64,000 bases of DNA from an uncultured archaeon (GTDB lineage: Archaea > Asgardarchaeota > Lokiarchaeia > Sigyniarchaeales > SOKP01): contig CAZBPC010000002.1 of assembly GCA_964493715.1 (NCBI GenBank), forward strand, positions 4,814-68,813. Direction: 5' to 3'. Position numbers and translations under genes: made by a program. Positions within the stretch are counted from its first letter, which is position 1. Each line of letters opens with the position of its first letter. Positions 2,003 through 55,021 of this stretch are shown piece by piece. The notes under the pieces are model-generated. The model was not told the origin of the DNA. It was given only the letters and a program-made list of their open reading frames with translations, and ran no database searches.

Positions 2003-2689
2003 ATGGATTTAACAATTCCCCGTAAAAATCTTACAGAATTGGTTTTATATATTTGGAAAATCATTGGATTATCTTTAATATCATTAAATGATCTTCTATA
2101 TCGACTTTCATTCGAATTATTTTTATTTGATCCAAAAGAAGCTAAAAAATTTGTTGAAACTGCGATTTCTCAAAATTATTTAATTTTAGATAGAGACGAT
2201 AATCTCAAATTATCAACGGAACTAAATCAAGAATTGAATATGTGGCAAATAAAAAGAAAGGAAGAAATTTCTGAGAGATTAACTTCCTCTAAAAGGATTA
2301 AAGATTTAAGGGGTGAAAACGGAACACAAAAAAACGCAAATCAATTCAAAAACCTATTTAAAATTTTCGTTGATGAAGCTACAGCGGGAAGATCAGCTTC
2401 TATTTTAAATTCTCATATAAAACTCCTCAGATTTGATGACAAAATTGGAATTCTTAAAGCAACTGTGAAAGGATCTCAAGAAAATAATTATAACGTAGAG
2501 ATAAATGTTGGGTTAAAAATATTAAAACATGATTGTCATGATTTTCAAACAAAAAAATCTAAATCCAAGAAATTTTGTAAACATTTAGCAAGATTATTTT
2601 TTCTAATAAAAGAACAAAATGAAAATTCAGCAACTTATTTCCTAAAAGAAATTGGAGAAAATATCAATGAATGGGAATTTATTGGTTAA
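2003..2689 (+). CDS. Hypothetical protein with C-terminal SWIM-like zinc-finger motif
   Basis: 228-aa ORF, 13 nt after DP1. The C-terminal KHDCHDF...FCKHLARLF resembles the SWIM CxC...CxH pattern, with the first Cys pair imperfect. Confidence 0.4.
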   Translation: MDLTIPRKNLTELVLYIWKIIGLSLISLNDLLYRLSFELFLFDPKEAKKFVETAISQNYLILDRDDNLKLSTELNQELNMWQIKRKEEISERLTSSKRIKDLRGENGTQKNANQFKNLFKIFVDEATAGRSASILNSHIKLLRFDDKIGILKATVKGSQENNYNVEINVGLKILKHDCHDFQTKKSKSKKFCKHLARLFFLIKEQNENSATYFLKEIGENINEWEFIG

Positions 2690-4005
2690 AGAAGCTTTTT
2701 AAATACGTTACTTTTGATTTTTACTTTATCAGTTTGTAATAGTAATGGTTTATAATTCAATAAATCAGCCAATGATATGTGTTTTATTTGAGATAATACT
2801 TTTTCTGTCAATGATAAATCTATATCTAAAGTGATAATTTTGGTCCTCCCATAATGCCCCATTGATCTTGTAGTAGCTGTTATAATACCTGCTAAAGCAA
2901 GTTCATTTATGTAATCTGATATTCTTCTTTTGGTTAATAATTTTGTATTTGTTAGCTTATTTGTAAGTTCTAAATGGATATCATATATTTCACCTGAAGT
3001 GATTATATTATCCCTAGAATACTTTCTCATCAAATAAATCGCGGTAAGTGTTAATTGAGACTGTAAGGGCATCCCTAATATATATTCAACAACATTGTCT
3101 TTCTCAATATCCTGTTGAGCTTTATTTACATCCAATTCAGAGATAAATGCTCGCTGATTTCTTTCTGAATTTTCTCCTGCTTTTCTTAATAATTGAAGTG
3201 CCTTACGAGAATCACCGTGTTCCTTAGCAGCTAAGCCCGCACATAATTTTATGACTCCTTCATTGATGACTCCCTCTTGAAATGCAACTTTCGCTCGTTT
3301 CTCAAGAATATCCGATAATTCATTTGCATTATAAGGATGAAAAACCAATTCTTCTTGTCCCAAACTAGATTTTACTCGTGGATCTAAGTAGTCCTTAAAT
3401 TTCAATTTATTTGAAATTCCAATAACATTAGCCCTACAAAGATCTAAATTTTCATTTAATCTGGTTAGATCGTAAAGAATTTCGTTTCCTCCCTTTTTTT
3501 CAATAAGAATATCAATTTCATCTAGGACAAGAAAACAAACATTTGTATTTATGCATAAATCTAGTAAACCTAATAGTTTCTTAAAAATTATATCTTTTGG
3601 TAAACCCGTGGGAGGAATTTTTTCTTTTCCGGAGATAGTGTTATATATATGTGCTAAAACTCGATAAGGTGTTGAAACTACATTACAATTTATATATATC
3701 CACCAAGGTGGCTTTGAATCACAGTGTTGTGCTAACTTCTGACTAACATATCTTATTGTAGCTGTTTTACCCGTACCAGTCATCCCATAACATAAGAAAT
3801 TTGGAGGAACATCTCCTTTCAATGCACAAGCAGTGAGTCCTGCTATTTTTTCTATCTCAGCGTCTCTATGTGGCAATTCATCTGGGATGAAAGATGGATC
3901 TAATGCTTCCCGATTTCTAAAAATTTTAGGACCATTCATATAATTTTTGTAAAAACGATCAATGTTAAAGCTATAGTTACCATTATTATTTGGGTTAGTC
4001 AACAC
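2686..4005 (-). CDS. cdc6: Orc1/Cdc6 replication initiator (AAA+ plus C-terminal winged helix)
   Basis: 439 aa. N-terminal DELPHRD motif, Walker A GMTGTGKT, Walker B LVLDEID. Length and layout are typical of archaeal Orc1/Cdc6. Confidence 0.9.
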   Translation of the reverse strand: MLTNPNNNGNYSFNIDRFYKNYMNGPKIFRNREALDPSFIPDELPHRDAEIEKIAGLTACALKGDVPPNFLCYGMTGTGKTATIRYVSQKLAQHCDSKPPWWIYINCNVVSTPYRVLAHIYNTISGKEKIPPTGLPKDIIFKKLLGLLDLCINTNVCFLVLDEIDILIEKKGGNEILYDLTRLNENLDLCRANVIGISNKLKFKDYLDPRVKSSLGQEELVFHPYNANELSDILEKRAKVAFQEGVINEGVIKLCAGLAAKEHGDSRKALQLLRKAGENSERNQRAFISELDVNKAQQDIEKDNVVEYILGMPLQSQLTLTAIYLMRKYSRDNIITSGEIYDIHLELTNKLTNTKLLTKRRISDYINELALAGIITATTRSMGHYGRTKIITLDIDLSLTEKVLSQIKHISLADLLNYKPLLLQTDKVKIKSNVFKKLL

Positions 4006-5697: not shown

Positions 5698-6150
5698 GTG
5701 AATGAAAAGAAAGTGAAAATTCCCGGATTTGAATACATAGATCACACCGCAGATGTTCAAGCTCGTTGCTACGGACGTACTCTCGAACAAGCATTTGAAC
5801 AAACTGCCTATGCAGTTATGAAAACAATCTCACCTAATTTGGAGAAAATCCTCCCAATAGAGAAAAAAGAAATTACAATTAAAGCAGAAGATAAGCAAGC
5901 TTTATTATTTGATTTTTTATCTGAATTTTTATACATCTTTGATGTTGAAGGGTTAATATTTTCCCAAATAATCGTTGAGAAAATTAAAAAAAGGGGGGAT
6001 GAATTTACCTTAATCGCGAATGCCAGCGGAGAGAAATTTAATAATTTACGTCATGAAATCGGGATAGAAGTGAAAGCAATCACGTATTCATACATGAATA
6101 TTGAAGAAAAAAGTGATAAAACCATAATCGATATTGTTTTTGATATATGA
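5698..6150 (+). CDS. Archease (RtcB activator)
   Basis: 150 aa. N-terminal FEYIDHTADV motif typical of archease. Convergent with rtcB and abutting it with zero spacer. Confidence 0.85.
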   Translation: MNEKKVKIPGFEYIDHTADVQARCYGRTLEQAFEQTAYAVMKTISPNLEKILPIEKKEITIKAEDKQALLFDFLSEFLYIFDVEGLIFSQIIVEKIKKRGDEFTLIANASGEKFNNLRHEIGIEVKAITYSYMNIEEKSDKTIIDIVFDI

Positions 6151-7685
6151 TTATCCCTTAACAACTCCTACTGGCACTAAACGTACGATCTTTTCAATAA
6201 TTCCAAGATCGTGGCTAACTTGAACTACTTGATCAATATCTTTATAAGCTCCTGGAGCTTCTTCAGCAACTACTTCATTCGAAGCAGCTCTTATCGAAAT
6301 CCCTTGATTTTTAAGGCTATCTGTCAATTGTCGAATATTAGGAAGGTACTTTCGTTTTGCTTTAGATCTAGACATCACTCGACCTGAACCGTGTGCTGTT
6401 GAACCAAATGAGAGATCCATAGCTTTTGGTCTTCCAACACAAAGATATGAAGCTGAACCCATGGTACCTGGAATCAACGCTGGTTGTCCAATACTTTTAT
6501 AATCCTGTGACAATTCTGGATGACCTGGAGGAAAAGCTCGCGTAGCTCCTTTTCTATGTACATTTAATAAGATCTTTTTACCATCCACTTCGTGTTCTTC
6601 TATTTTAAGGATATTATGAGCAACGCCATATATCAGCGTGAAATCTAATTCCTCAGCACTCTGTTTAAAATGTGATTGAAATGATTCTCTTAACCAATGA
6701 GTAATTAATTGCCTATTATTAAATCCAAAATTCGCAGCACAAGCCATTTGACTTAGATACATATCTGCTTCTGGTGTATTTGCAGGCACACAAGCGAGCT
6801 CTCTATCGGGAACCTCAATCTTGTATTTTTTCATGGCTTGTTCTATAGCTCTCAACGAATCAGTACATATTTGATGACCTAAAGCTCTTGAACCTGTATG
6901 AACCATCACTGTGACTTGATTTTCTTGAAGAATTCCTAATTTCTTTGCTATATCTCTATTGAAAATTTTATCTACTTTTTGTATTTCTAAAAAATGGTTT
7001 CCACTTCCTAAAGAACCGAGTTGTTTTATACCTCTTTGCTTTGCTTTCTGTGAAACTAATTCTGCATTTGCATTTTTTAAAAAACCATTCTCCTCACAGT
7101 GTTTTATATCTTCTTTCAAGGCATAGCCATTATCAAGTGCCCAGTTTAATCCATTATTTAGAACATCATCTAAATCTGAGAAATTTATGTTTAATTTTCC
7201 TTTTGACCCTAATCCTGAAGGAATATTCTTGAATATTGTGTCTAATAAAGTTGGAATTTTTTTTTGAACATCTTTCATCATTAAATTCGTTCGTAGTAAT
7301 CTTACACCACAGTTAATATCGTCTTTGGCATAAAAGCCTATGCTCTTATGTATCCAACGCCGCCAGGCGAAATCATACCATCTGTGGCATCCGTTCCTGC
7401 AACTCCTCCAATACAAAAACCGTATCCTTGATGAGCATCAGATAATGCGATTGCATGTTTTTGAATGCCCGGCAAACAAGCAACATTACTTATCTGATCA
7501 AGAGTTCTATCTTGTTTAATCTTTTCCATGATATATTCATTGGCGTAAATATGTACTGGGACTTTCATTTCAAATTTTTTAATTGTCCCCTCAACTCGTG
7601 CCATCAAAGTTTGCGGTTCGATCTCATAAATATTTTCAGCAATTTTTTTTACATTCATTATCTTCAATAATTCTACATTTATCAA
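6151..7685 (-). CDS. rtcB: RNA-splicing ligase RtcB, interrupted by a 29-nt BHB mini-intron (exons 7685-7352 and 7322-6151)
   Basis: Two overlapping ORFs (7338-7685 and 6151-7416) in different frames. The first ends [10 protein letters not shown], and the second carries [20 protein letters not shown] and HGSGR motifs. Removing 7323-7351 gives one 501-aa RtcB. Confidence 0.85.
7323..7351 (-). other. Putative bulge-helix-bulge intron in rtcB mRNA (29 nt)
   Basis: Sense RNA: UUGG[AU|A]CAUAA-GAGCAUAGGCUU-UUAUG CCAA[AG|A]. It has a perfect 4-bp central helix, two 3-nt bulges and a 5-bp inner helix. Excision restores GVGY-DINCG in frame. Confidence 0.65.
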
Positions 7686-7828: not shown

Positions 7829-9970
7829 TTAAGTATGAATAAATATTCCAGCAGATAATCCAAAATTATTGGAATCTTCTAAACATAGATTATAGATTTT
7901 CAATGGTTCACACTCGATGATTTCAATACTAATAATTTTATGATTAATCACTTTATGACTTCTGGTCAGATGCCCTGATAATCCTCTCTGTGAGCCAAAA
8001 ATTTTGTCACAAAGAGGACAAGGGAAGCAACCAACTTCTCGTACCTTATGGTCTGGGTTTTCAGGACAGTATCTTATATGAGTACTTAATCCTCCATTTC
8101 CCTTGAATAATTCATTACAAAAAGGACATGATATTAATTCATTGTGAACCTCAGCATAGTGTTTTTTTAATTCACTTGCCCCAATTATCATTTTTCCACA
8201 TTTATGACAAACCATCTTTCCATTTTTTGCCTTTTCTGATTGATTCTTCCGTCCTTTTTCACTCCTTACATATGCTTTTGAAGCTTTTTGAAATTTGTTC
8301 TGCAATTCTAACCAATGAGGTGGATGAGTGTTTTTATAATGCTCAATCATTTCCGCTCTGCCATAAACCAATTGACCACATATCTTACATATCATTTTGC
8401 CTTGTTTTCCTATTTCGGAGGACTTTTTCCGCCCCTTTTCACTTTTATTATATTTTACCAAATACTCTTTACCCCTTTTCCCAGCAGCCCTCGTCATATC
8501 ATAAAAGGCTTCTGATTTTATATAATCACTTATATTTTTCGATGCTCTTTTTGAGTGTCTTTTTTGAAATTGCGGATCTCGATGTAACTTTCTTATATTC
8601 TCTGAAGCCATTTCAGAATAGAAATCTGGATATAATTTATGTGCTCTCCCCCATCCAATTTCCCCTTTTACTGCTCTTTCACTGGCGAATTTACTATGGA
8701 TTTCAAAATGCTCTTTAAAAAATGTTCTCCTGATATTAGAGGGATTATTATTATATTTATCGAAATCGATATGATGCCTTATTTTCCCCATATCTTTTGT
8801 ATAAACATTATCCCTAATATTGTAATCATCAGCTAAATTATGTATATAATCATACGTTCCTGTTCTCGGATTATAGACAACCAGATAATCTTCTAATTTT
8901 AATCGCTTATCTTTATAAGATCTGTTAGCTACGGATATATCTTTAGCATAATAAATTTTTAAAGGCATTAATGAATCTTCATTATGCAAATGAACAACTT
9001 CAATTAATTTATTATTCCTGTTTATAAAAGCACAATTATAATCACAATATATTATGGTAGAATCATCCAAGGTAATTTTTATTAATTTTGATACATCTCT
9101 AATTCTTTTTATTTTTTCTATTTTTGAAATAACAATATTAGAGTATCGATCTAATGAAAAACAATACAATTCATTCCCTAAATTACATTCTTCCATTAAT
9201 TTTAAGAGAGTTAAATCACGTCCATCAGCTAGGTGAATTTTACTACTTCCTATTATACCCCCTTTTCTAAAATTCCTCTTTTCCTGTATATTATTAATGG
9301 TGCTGGACATTTTTGATTGAATTTTGTTAAAATCATAAGTATTTAAATCCCTAAATATCATTGCTTCAAATTTATCAATCAATCCCTTATTCCATAATTC
9401 AGAAACTAATATGAATACTTGTTTTACTAACCATCTTAGGTATATTATGAATCTCTGGCGAAAGATTGGGTACAATTTTACCTTATTGTGTATTTTTGTT
9501 AAATTAGAATAAAAATCTGCCAGGGTTATCTCATTTAATTTATCCAAAAAATCTTCTTCAACATCATTATGTAAAATAGGCATTAGAGCCCCCGATAATA
9601 AATTAAGCAATTTCACATCAAGCTCTACATTATCGAATTTCTTATCTAAAGTTTTTTCAAGATACCTAATATTGAAATAGATCATACGGGCAAGAACAAG
9701 TGTTAAATTGTCGATGAATCCAATCTGAATATCATGATCTTCGGCAATAATCTCAACAGGGTGTTCAATAGAATTGAGAGTAGTTTCGGAATTATTTTCT
9801 TCTGTATTATCCAAATTAGTGAGATTGATTTTATCCAACTTGCTTCCACAACGCTCGCAAAAATGTATCTTATCCTCATAGCCAGATATTTCTCTTATCT
9901 GATTATTTAAAATGCGCCATTCACAATTAGGGCAACTATAATAGTAAAGTCGACTATTGTCTACTACCAT
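7829..9970 (-). CDS. Zinc-ribbon / degenerate Hint (intein-like) / HNH / 4x C2H2 zinc-finger protein
   Basis: 713 aa. N-terminal CPNC...CERC ribbon. Hint block A-like SKIHLADGRDLTLL. HNH motif RHHIDFDKYNNNPSNIRR...H. Four C-X2-C-X12-H-X3-4-H/C fingers. Intein block F/G-like IYNLCLEDSNNFGLSAGIFIHT sits at the very C-terminus. Confidence 0.6.
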   Translation of the reverse strand: MVVDNSRLYYYSCPNCEWRILNNQIREISGYEDKIHFCERCGSKLDKINLTNLDNTEENNSETTLNSIEHPVEIIAEDHDIQIGFIDNLTLVLARMIYFNIRYLEKTLDKKFDNVELDVKLLNLLSGALMPILHNDVEEDFLDKLNEITLADFYSNLTKIHNKVKLYPIFRQRFIIYLRWLVKQVFILVSELWNKGLIDKFEAMIFRDLNTYDFNKIQSKMSSTINNIQEKRNFRKGGIIGSSKIHLADGRDLTLLKLMEECNLGNELYCFSLDRYSNIVISKIEKIKRIRDVSKLIKITLDDSTIIYCDYNCAFINRNNKLIEVVHLHNEDSLMPLKIYYAKDISVANRSYKDKRLKLEDYLVVYNPRTGTYDYIHNLADDYNIRDNVYTKDMGKIRHHIDFDKYNNNPSNIRRTFFKEHFEIHSKFASERAVKGEIGWGRAHKLYPDFYSEMASENIRKLHRDPQFQKRHSKRASKNISDYIKSEAFYDMTRAAGKRGKEYLVKYNKSEKGRKKSSEIGKQGKMICKICGQLVYGRAEMIEHYKNTHPPHWLELQNKFQKASKAYVRSEKGRKNQSEKAKNGKMVCHKCGKMIIGASELKKHYAEVHNELISCPFCNELFKGNGGLSTHIRYCPENPDHKVREVGCFPCPLCDKIFGSQRGLSGHLTRSHKVINHKIISIEIIECEPLKIYNLCLEDSNNFGLSAGIFIHT

Positions 9971-54775: not shown

Positions 54776-54882
54776 TGGCGGGCTATGAGGGAATTTCGCA
54801 ATCATCCTATTCGGACGAATCTATCGAACCCCCGACCCCCCGGTTAAGAGCCGGATGCGCTACCTAGCTGCGCCAATAGCCC
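54776..54882 (-). tRNA. tRNA-Lys(CUU) with 30-nt intron in the T-loop (59/60) and encoded CCA
   Basis: Cloverleaf read by hand: acceptor GGGCUAU/AUAGCCC, D arm GCGC-AGCUAGGUA-GCGC, anticodon arm UCCGG-CUCUUAA-CCGGG, T stem GGGGG/CCCUC. Intron 54793-54822 with BHB UUCG[AU|A]...CGAA[AU|U]. Confidence 0.85.
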
Positions 54883-54920: not shown

Positions 54921-55021
54921 CGCAGACGGAGGGATTCGAACCCCCGAGCGCTCACGCGCACCGGTTTACTCGAATATGAAAACACTCAAGACCGGCGTCT
55001 TACCAACTAGGCTACGTCTGC
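54921..55021 (-). tRNA. tRNA-Ser(UGA) with 18-nt canonical 37/38 intron
   Basis: Acceptor GCAGACG/CGUCUGC, anticodon stem CCGGU/ACCGG, loop CUUGAG..A, long variable arm GCGC-GUGA-GCGC, T arm GGGGG-UUCGAAU-CCCUC. Intron 54967-54984 with BHB CUUG[AG|U]...CGAG[UA|A]. Confidence 0.85.

Follow-up and report, generated by a model that had tools for sequence, protein, structure and literature searches.

The stretch of DNA analysed here (the window: 64,000 nucleotides of contig CAZBPC010000002.1 from an uncultured Lokiarchaeia-type Asgard archaeon, with a G+C content of 30%) carries on its minus strand a gene for the RNA ligase RtcB whose reading frame is interrupted, within the active-site motif, by a short insert that resembles an archaeal tRNA intron. 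The rtcB gene spans positions 6151-7658 of the window and is broken at 7323-7351 by 29 nucleotides (ACAUAAGAGCAUAGGCUUUUAUGCCAAAG), an insert that is found with the same site and length in 14 other alleles. The first exon (7352-7658), defined by its open reading frame (ORF) and a match to the Pfam RtcB model, begins with an ATG at 7658 and comprises 102 codons along with the first base of the Tyr103 codon. The second exon (6151-7322), defined by its ORF and by alignment, supplies the remaining AC of that codon, 389 further codons and the stop. Abutting rtcB tail to tail, in the convergent orientation, is a gene on the plus strand (5698-6150) for archease (Pfam PF01951, 142 bits), the cofactor of RtcB (PMC3973293); this neighbor had already been pointed out in a preliminary description of the window made from its sequence alone. 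The closest relatives of the interrupted rtcB come from metagenome-assembled genomes (MAGs) labelled Promethearchaeota, with taxonomic labels of MAGs being used throughout as deposited.

The frame is lost exactly where the preliminary description had placed the break, inside the motif GGVGYDINCG: the upstream ORF runs into a stop, and DINCGVRLL resumes 29 nucleotides further on in another frame. In silico removal of 7323-7351 joins GGA U↓AC GAU (the arrow here and below marks a cut or junction), and the predicted spliced junction, GGCGGCGTTGGAT followed directly by ACGATATTAACTGTGG, restores GVGYDINCG and a single ORF, as had been proposed. The resulting protein covers the whole Pfam RtcB model (560 bits) and aligns with the Pyrococcus RtcB structures 7lfq and 1uc2 with no gap over the junction (E about 1e-178), identifying the host gene as rtcB and not cbf5, the crenarchaeal gene from which an mRNA intron is known. 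The likely start codon is the ATG at 7658 (MNVKK), which matches both the homologs and the database gene calls; with this start the spliced and unspliced products are 492 and 106 amino acids long, and the sizes of 501 and 115 given initially have to be corrected. On the unspliced mRNA a stop is encountered three codons past Tyr103 and the 29 nucleotides shift the frame, such that no active protein is predicted from it. The protein collection holds the window allele as two gene-caller fragments of 106 and 376 amino acids.

In the minus-strand RNA the insert and its flanks fold as a motif of the bulge-helix-bulge (BHB) kind. The central helix, H, pairs the exon strand UUGG (7354-7357, comprising positions 2-3 of the Val101 codon and positions 1-2 of the Gly102 codon) with the intron strand CCAA (7325-7328), which becomes CCUA in the two alleles, L107 and L108, where the exon strand is UAGG. 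It is flanked by a 5' bulge AU↓A (7351-7353, predicted cut between 7352 and 7351), which is unpaired in minimum free energy (MFE) and consensus folds, and by a 3' bulge AG↓A (7322-7324, predicted cut between 7323 and 7322), the middle base of which varies freely between G, C and A among the alleles, as expected for an unpaired base. The inner helix, h', pairs CAUAAGAGC (7342-7350) with GCUUUUAUG (7329-7337) over nine base pairs in both MFE and RNAalifold folds, with additional backing from covariation, and is closed by the loop AUAG (7338-7341), in which 7338-7340 form an in-frame UAG stop, where translation of the unspliced message ends. The outer exon-exon helix, h, is weak: CG (7358-7359) faces CG (7320-7321, in the Tyr and Asp codons), giving two pairs in the window allele, of which the G-C is invariant and the C-G is shared by 10 of 13 alleles. 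Thus, of the helices closing the two bulges, the inner one has nine covarying pairs and the outer one only one or two in the Loki-type alleles. With just two pairs in the outer helix the 3' bulge is weakly closed, which makes the motif a relaxed, HBh'-like BHB rather than a canonical hBHBh'. In the geometry first described, the four-pair UUGG/CCAA helix and the three-nucleotide bulges AUA and AGA stand, while the inner helix is of nine rather than five pairs; the folding check that had been suggested for this region recovers H, the 5' bulge and the nine-pair helix in MFE and consensus folds, and RNAalifold alone likewise recovers these three elements. A scan of both strands of the window for BHB motifs coupled to ORF fusion returned 62 hits, among which rtcB is the sole one with a long inner helix and a short frame-restoring intron; all the others are ordinary tandem-gene boundaries with weak AT-rich helices.

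Work on cbf5 placed the cut in a BHB between residues 2 and 3 of the bulge (PMC2738675). Two tRNA genes of the window provide in-genome controls for this register. The gene for tRNA-Ser(UGA) (54921-55021, minus strand) has an 18-nucleotide BHB intron (54967-54984) at position 37/38, with H formed by CUUG/CGAG and a very weak inner helix. That for tRNA-Lys(CUU) (54779-54882, minus strand) has a 30-nucleotide BHB intron (54793-54822) at 59/60, a non-canonical position in the T-loop; here the motif is a canonical hBHBh' whose outer helix is formed by the T stem, and the 5' bulge is AU↓A. As ARAGORN and Rfam miss or miscall intron-bearing tRNAs when no splicing is applied (ARAGORN placing the tRNA-Lys gene at 54796-54881), in silico splicing was used instead; upon cutting after the second bulge nucleotide both were recognized by ARAGORN as clean tRNAs. 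The same rule applied to rtcB removes exactly 7323-7351 and yields full-length RtcB, which bears out the earlier claim of a register shared with the two tRNA introns. Moreover, the non-canonical intron of tRNA-Lys implies that the host possesses an active splicing endonuclease, EndA.

The insert is not peculiar to the window. At least 15 alleles, including that of the window, carry a 29-nucleotide insert at the identical nucleotide of rtcB. The best 80 rtcB loci of species-representative genomes comprise 76 uninterrupted ones and three (L076-L078) with a 29-nucleotide insert at this nucleotide, and a scan of metagenomes with a DNA pattern uncovered eight further intron-bearing alleles. A protein search with the exon-1 fragment, which is independent of the intron sequence, recovered at least 16 clusters of N-terminal fragments ending 0-3 residues past GGVGY, with the read-through tails IRA, IKA, IKV, M, MKT and KKA. 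The DNA of three alleles from these clusters (L100, L105 and L106) again shows, at the same site, 29-nucleotide inserts whose helices have diverged.

Across 13 alleles, six of the nine pairs of the inner helix display compensatory changes on both sides, pairing holds in 97% of the cells as against 30-46% when the 3' partners are slid, and the observed covariation was reached by none of 500 shuffles. A first test on the pattern-found alleles alone was non-significant (86 of 500 shuffles), and significance was attained after adding the alleles found through protein fragments. H is fully paired in 11 of the 13 alleles. The comparison of orthologs called for by the preliminary description therefore came out in favor of the intron: the insert recurs in at least 15 alleles, is absent in 76, and covaries in its inner helix. 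Codons 101-103 read GTT GGA TAC in 12 of 12 intron-bearing alleles and in none of the 76 intron-less ones; for eight of these 12 the search pattern itself included GGATAC, but not GTT, and the three alleles found later through proteins agree. We also considered an intact RtcB of the protein collection (P0030, with the variant NATDGMI) as a precise intron loss or a transcript, and its junction codons, GTA GGA TAT, render it uninformative. An in-frame stop (UAG, UGA or UAA) occupies loop positions 2-4 in 12 of 13 alleles, the exception being L100, with the loop AUUU and a UAG two codons past the Tyr. This suggests selection for prompt termination on the unspliced mRNA, a reading tempered by the fact that a random 29-mer of the same composition would have an in-frame stop 64% of the time.

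Inserts of other lengths are found at the same nucleotide in a more distant lineage. The rtcB genes L107 and L108 possess inserts of 31 (about 1395-1430) and 19 nucleotides (about 305-325), respectively; they are nearest to woesearchaeotal sequences (76-78% identity), with MAGs labelled as bacterial nearly as near, and hence their assignment to a Woesearchaeota-like lineage is only probable. Relative to the window, H is UAGG/CCUA in place of UUGG/CCAA, i.e. a compensatory swap that couples a synonymous exon site with the intron. The bulges are AU↓U and AG↓A, the inner hairpins differ in length, and in L108 the outer helix is longer, with 2 + 5 pairs. In both genes the codon on the unspliced RNA is UUG, and Tyr arises only upon a cut according to the BHB rule, no other register giving GYD. 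In a third, distant lineage (L101, 1444-4227) an unrelated BHB-like insert of 21 nucleotides with an in-frame TAA lies between TAT and GAT, and the same gene additionally encodes an intein with a LAGLIDADG domain after DIN, the ORF amounting to 920 amino acids once the 21 nucleotides are removed. Three RtcB fragments from the database (P0192, P0261 and P0263) read GGVGYDIN↓CLT.D..IL, with an intein point three codons downstream of the mini-intron site. The inteins at DIN↓C together with the mini-introns indicate that two kinds of selfish element target this invariant motif of RtcB.

Together, the recurrence, also in independent assemblies, the signs of purifying selection, the covariation, the synonymous exon sites fixed in intron-bearing alleles only, the exclusion of recoding (both selection and recoding are discussed below) and the Tyr codon of L107 and L108 support the core of the original proposal, and we hold it very probable that 7323-7351 is a genuine archaeal tRNA-type BHB intron within the rtcB coding sequence that is removed at the RNA level. 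Given its geometry, the tRNA introns of the host and the established roles of the two enzymes (PMC5829648, PMC3973293), we infer that EndA would make the cuts and RtcB the ligation, so that new RtcB would depend on old RtcB. The exon UUGG of the pre-mRNA would pair with the intron CCAA, with the nine-pair intron hairpin stacked on one side and three-nucleotide bulges at both ends. EndA, which in Asgard archaea is an (alpha-beta)2-type enzyme with an L1 loop conferring broad specificity (PMC5829648), would cleave each strand after the second bulge nucleotide. RtcB, the established splicing ligase of archaea, would then, with archease, join the 2',3'-cyclic-phosphate and 5'-OH ends (PMC5829648, PMC3973293), thereby recreating the Tyr103 codon and the metal-binding motif GYDINCG. 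Unspliced mRNA would give rise to the 106-residue fragment only, owing to the in-frame stop in the hairpin loop. If RtcB is the sole ligase, it follows as a logical consequence that new RtcB requires old RtcB.

Several points weigh against this interpretation. The 3' cut site does not lie in a well-closed bulge, and some MFE folds favor a 5x5 internal loop. The local fold energy is unremarkable (z-score of -1.2), and the case therefore rests on comparative evidence. Within that evidence, H contains one mismatch in L100 and one in L105, and eight of the alleles were found via a DNA pattern that fixes part of the intron. The exact spliced products of eight alleles were not found in the protein collection by exact look-up. 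Finally, the evidence is drawn from DNA and protein sequences, from which splicing of the intron is predicted.

The distribution of the intron is patchy. On a simple neighbor-joining tree of rtcB without support values the intron-bearing alleles occupy at least seven places, some of them beside intron-less alleles; the intron is missing from close relatives with 89-94% protein identity, and the window's own 90% protein cluster has both intact and split members. A particularly informative pair is formed by L091 and the intron-less L072, which are 97.7% identical over the whole gene, with 12 of their 34 differences falling between -34 and +10 of the junction. In this tract L091 is 93% identical to the window allele and L086, as opposed to 50-80% elsewhere; its intron thus sits inside a foreign tract of roughly 45 nucleotides. 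Further, a linked protein variant, DATDGMI, is found in eight of 12 intron-bearing alleles and in none of the 76 intron-less ones. In the sequences compared this is the signature of lateral intron gain by recombination, with co-conversion of the flanking exon sequence. A long-range helix, CCACAG(-37)/CUGUGG(+12), was entertained as the reason for the conserved upstream exon, but it is broken without compensation in L077 and L078 and is not predicted by RNAalifold; hence co-conversion is the preferred explanation. The 29 nucleotides hold no ORF and no homing endonuclease was identified, and the intron may spread by plain recombination. We accordingly picture it as a small mobile intron that would persist in an invariant, hard-to-delete site and pass from one rtcB allele to another by recombination, taking flanking exon sequence along.

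That the close relatives lack the intron shows it to be dispensable, which argues for a tolerated mobile element; it is probably a mobile, selfish element rather than an evolved regulator, and we regard the self-referential loop as most likely a consequence that is tolerated, not a designed control. The competing view, namely that the arrangement evolved as an autoregulatory device coupling RtcB synthesis to ligase activity by positive feedback, a checkpoint or bistability, strikes us as possible but rather unlikely. Its topology follows directly if EndA and RtcB splice the intron, both the intron and the in-frame stop in its loop are conserved, and a role as a negative regulator has been proposed for the cbf5 intron (PMC2738675). 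However, a device that relatives with 89-94% protein identity do without is dispensable, a mobile element fits both the co-conversion tract and the patchy distribution, and positive feedback is no homeostatic control for an essential enzyme. A bolder extension of the mobile-element reading, for which we see only a slender chance, is that the rtcB mini-introns are an old mobile family that in several archaeal phyla (Asgard, DPANN-like and others) hits one nucleotide of the active-site motif, and that they propagate through the very enzymes on which they depend, e.g. when EndA and RtcB reverse-splice them into intron-less rtcB mRNA and recombination follows. They would then constitute a self-sustaining, self-gating loop of RNA ligation and an archaeal forerunner of the RtcB-dependent, frame-switching type of mRNA splicing known from XBP1.

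It is also conceivable, although improbable, that the intron is removed at the RNA level by another endonuclease or joined by another ligase, such as an Rnl3-type or a 2'-5' ligase, in which case there would be no self-referential loop. The relaxed context of the 3' site leaves room for this, as does a host ligase repertoire that could include further ligases. Against it, the geometry and register equal those of the host tRNA introns, every archaeal BHB intron known is processed by EndA, and splicing ligation in archaea is the established role of RtcB (PMC5829648, PMC3973293).

Translational recoding, in which the ribosome would shift frame or hop over the 29 nucleotides without any splicing, as in phage T4 gene 60, is very improbable. 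The stop codon and hairpin after the Tyr codon bear a superficial likeness to gene 60. Yet a frameshift would place about 10 extra residues in the invariant GYDINCG, there is no conserved slippery site, and L105 and L108 have stops in both frames that no single frameshift could avoid. Hopping fares no better, given that the landing codon is NAC, where N is G, C or A and never U, and that L107 and L108 have no Tyr codon on the unspliced RNA at all.

We give almost no credence to the insert being a sequencing or assembly error, or to the gene being a pseudogene whose function is supplied by another copy. Such an explanation could draw on gene callers splitting this rtcB, on an unrelated split rtcB (L103) that owes its break to a frameshift in a poly-G run, and on an extra truncated rtcB fragment in the genome of L104. 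However, the window allele, insert included, recurs over 3.9 kb with 0 mismatches in the Logan assembly of SRR8556609 and over 2.4 kb with no mismatch in that of SRR9700623, and a JGI contig has the identical 29-nucleotide insert; these independent assemblies dispose of the artefact that the preliminary description had asked to be checked. All complete intron-bearing genes keep their catalytic motifs and have both exons open to the normal stop. The ratio of nonsynonymous to synonymous divergence (dN/dS, omega) among them is 0.03-0.13, with dS up to saturation, and remains low within intron-bearing clades (window vs L087, dS 0.49 and omega 0.086; L077 vs L078, dS 0.17 and omega 0.126). The exact insert length, the conserved structure and the covariation are likewise foreign to an error or a decaying gene, and the 80 best loci include no second close rtcB from any of the three intron-bearing MAGs. 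By these sequence comparisons the explanation appears already largely refuted and, as regards a pseudogene, untenable. Equally far-fetched is a split enzyme assembled from the 106-residue N-terminal and 376-residue C-terminal products, both of which are long ORFs called as genes, since 11 of 14 alleles have no ATG, GTG or TTG upstream of Asp104 in the exon-2 frame and the next ATG, 13-138 codons downstream, would forfeit the metal ligands Asp and Cys of DINCG.

Some neighboring and superficially similar cases deserve a brief mention. L103 (rtcB at 2501-3909 of a 464-kb JGI contig), which served as a negative control, is not an intron: its break is a one-base frameshift in the poly-G run CCTGGGGGGTTGG, probably a sequencing error. 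L102 and L104, candidates for a giant intron, turned out to have a truncated extra rtcB fragment instead. In L104 (3314-3670 and 6183-6938) an intact intron-less rtcB is accompanied by an extra 5' rtcB fragment with 80% nucleotide identity to the intact copy; the fragment stops exactly at the intron nucleotide (GTTGGT T↓TAACAT) and may be a remnant left by a break or by recombination at the intron site. Directly upstream of the window's rtcB lies a gene for a C2H2 zinc-finger protein of 713 amino acids (7829-9970, minus strand), residues 234-713 of which are 57% identical to the protein encoded directly upstream of the L104 rtcB, marking it as a conserved neighbor. The ends of this protein (GSSKIHLADGRDL... 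and ...IYNLCLEDSNNFGLSAGIFIHT) look by eye like intein/Hint blocks, though a Pfam search with lenient thresholds returned zinc fingers only and no Hint or intein match.

Reviews give cbf5 and the 5' untranslated region (UTR) of HVO_1309 as the known mRNA substrates of archaeal splicing, and one of 2023 anticipated that others would turn up (PMC10485636). The initial statement that archaeal mRNA BHB introns are essentially confined to cbf5 thus holds for coding sequences, of which cbf5 is the sole known case, but overlooks HVO_1309 of Haloferax volcanii, the second archaeal mRNA spliced by EndA (PMC7714728, PMC10485636). We found no report of an rtcB mRNA intron in the full-text literature searched, the coverage of which was incomplete, in keeping with the earlier impression that the arrangement had not been described. 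If true, the rtcB intron would be the second archaeal coding-sequence case, situated in the closest archaeal relatives of eukaryotes and in the splicing ligase itself, and it would establish a self-referential expression circuit that is directly testable. For work on EndA and RtcB of Asgard archaea it would offer a natural mRNA substrate that is easy to assay, and it would indicate that BHB introns devoid of an ORF can move between alleles with flanking exon sequence. On the practical side, as gene callers render such genes as 106- and 376-residue pieces, many genomes of Asgard and DPANN archaea have their RtcB wrongly annotated or scored as absent.

Among known systems, the cbf5 intron offers the nearest parallel. 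Like it, the rtcB intron is short, BHB-like and usually relaxed, lies at the codon of a catalytic residue, would be cut between bulge nucleotides 2 and 3, and is patchily distributed. It differs in that its host gene encodes the ligase itself, making the arrangement self-referential, in its occurrence in Loki-type Asgard archaea and a Woesearchaeota-like group, in the signature of co-conversion seen here, and in being known so far from sequence, with splicing predicted. The cbf5 pre-mRNA intron was reportedly the subject of studies by Watanabe in 2002 and Yoshinari in 2006. In Crenarchaeota it is a short, relaxed BHB-like element in the coding sequence, is processed by a hetero-oligomeric EndA and is patchily distributed, gains and losses of it having been inferred (Yokobori 2009, PMC2738675). 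With archaeal tRNA introns the rtcB intron shares the four-pair helix and three-nucleotide bulges, the register, a size within the 18-30 nucleotide range and the AU↓A of tRNA-Lys; unlike them, it lies in an mRNA without a tRNA body, has an outer helix of one or two pairs, and is coding-constrained on the exon strand of H. The HVO_1309 intron is similarly an mRNA substrate of the archaeal splicing endonuclease, but it resides in a 5' UTR, leaves the frame uninterrupted, and belongs to a euryarchaeon with an alpha2-type enzyme.

A further parallel exists with the XBP1/HAC1 system of eukaryotes. In metazoans, XBP1 is ligated by RtcB and archease. There too a very short intron (26 nucleotides in XBP1) is removed with a shift of frame that yields the active protein, and the chemistry of 2',3'-cyclic phosphate and 5'-OH ends would be the same in rtcB. 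However, XBP1/HAC1 is cut by IRE1 at twin stem-loops rather than at a BHB, is induced by stress, and has a transcription factor as its target. The RtcB inteins, such as that of Pyrococcus horikoshii PH1602, are comparable in being selfish elements lodged in the same invariant motif; they are excised from the protein and code, or formerly coded, for a homing endonuclease, whereas the mini-intron is without an ORF and would be removed from the RNA.

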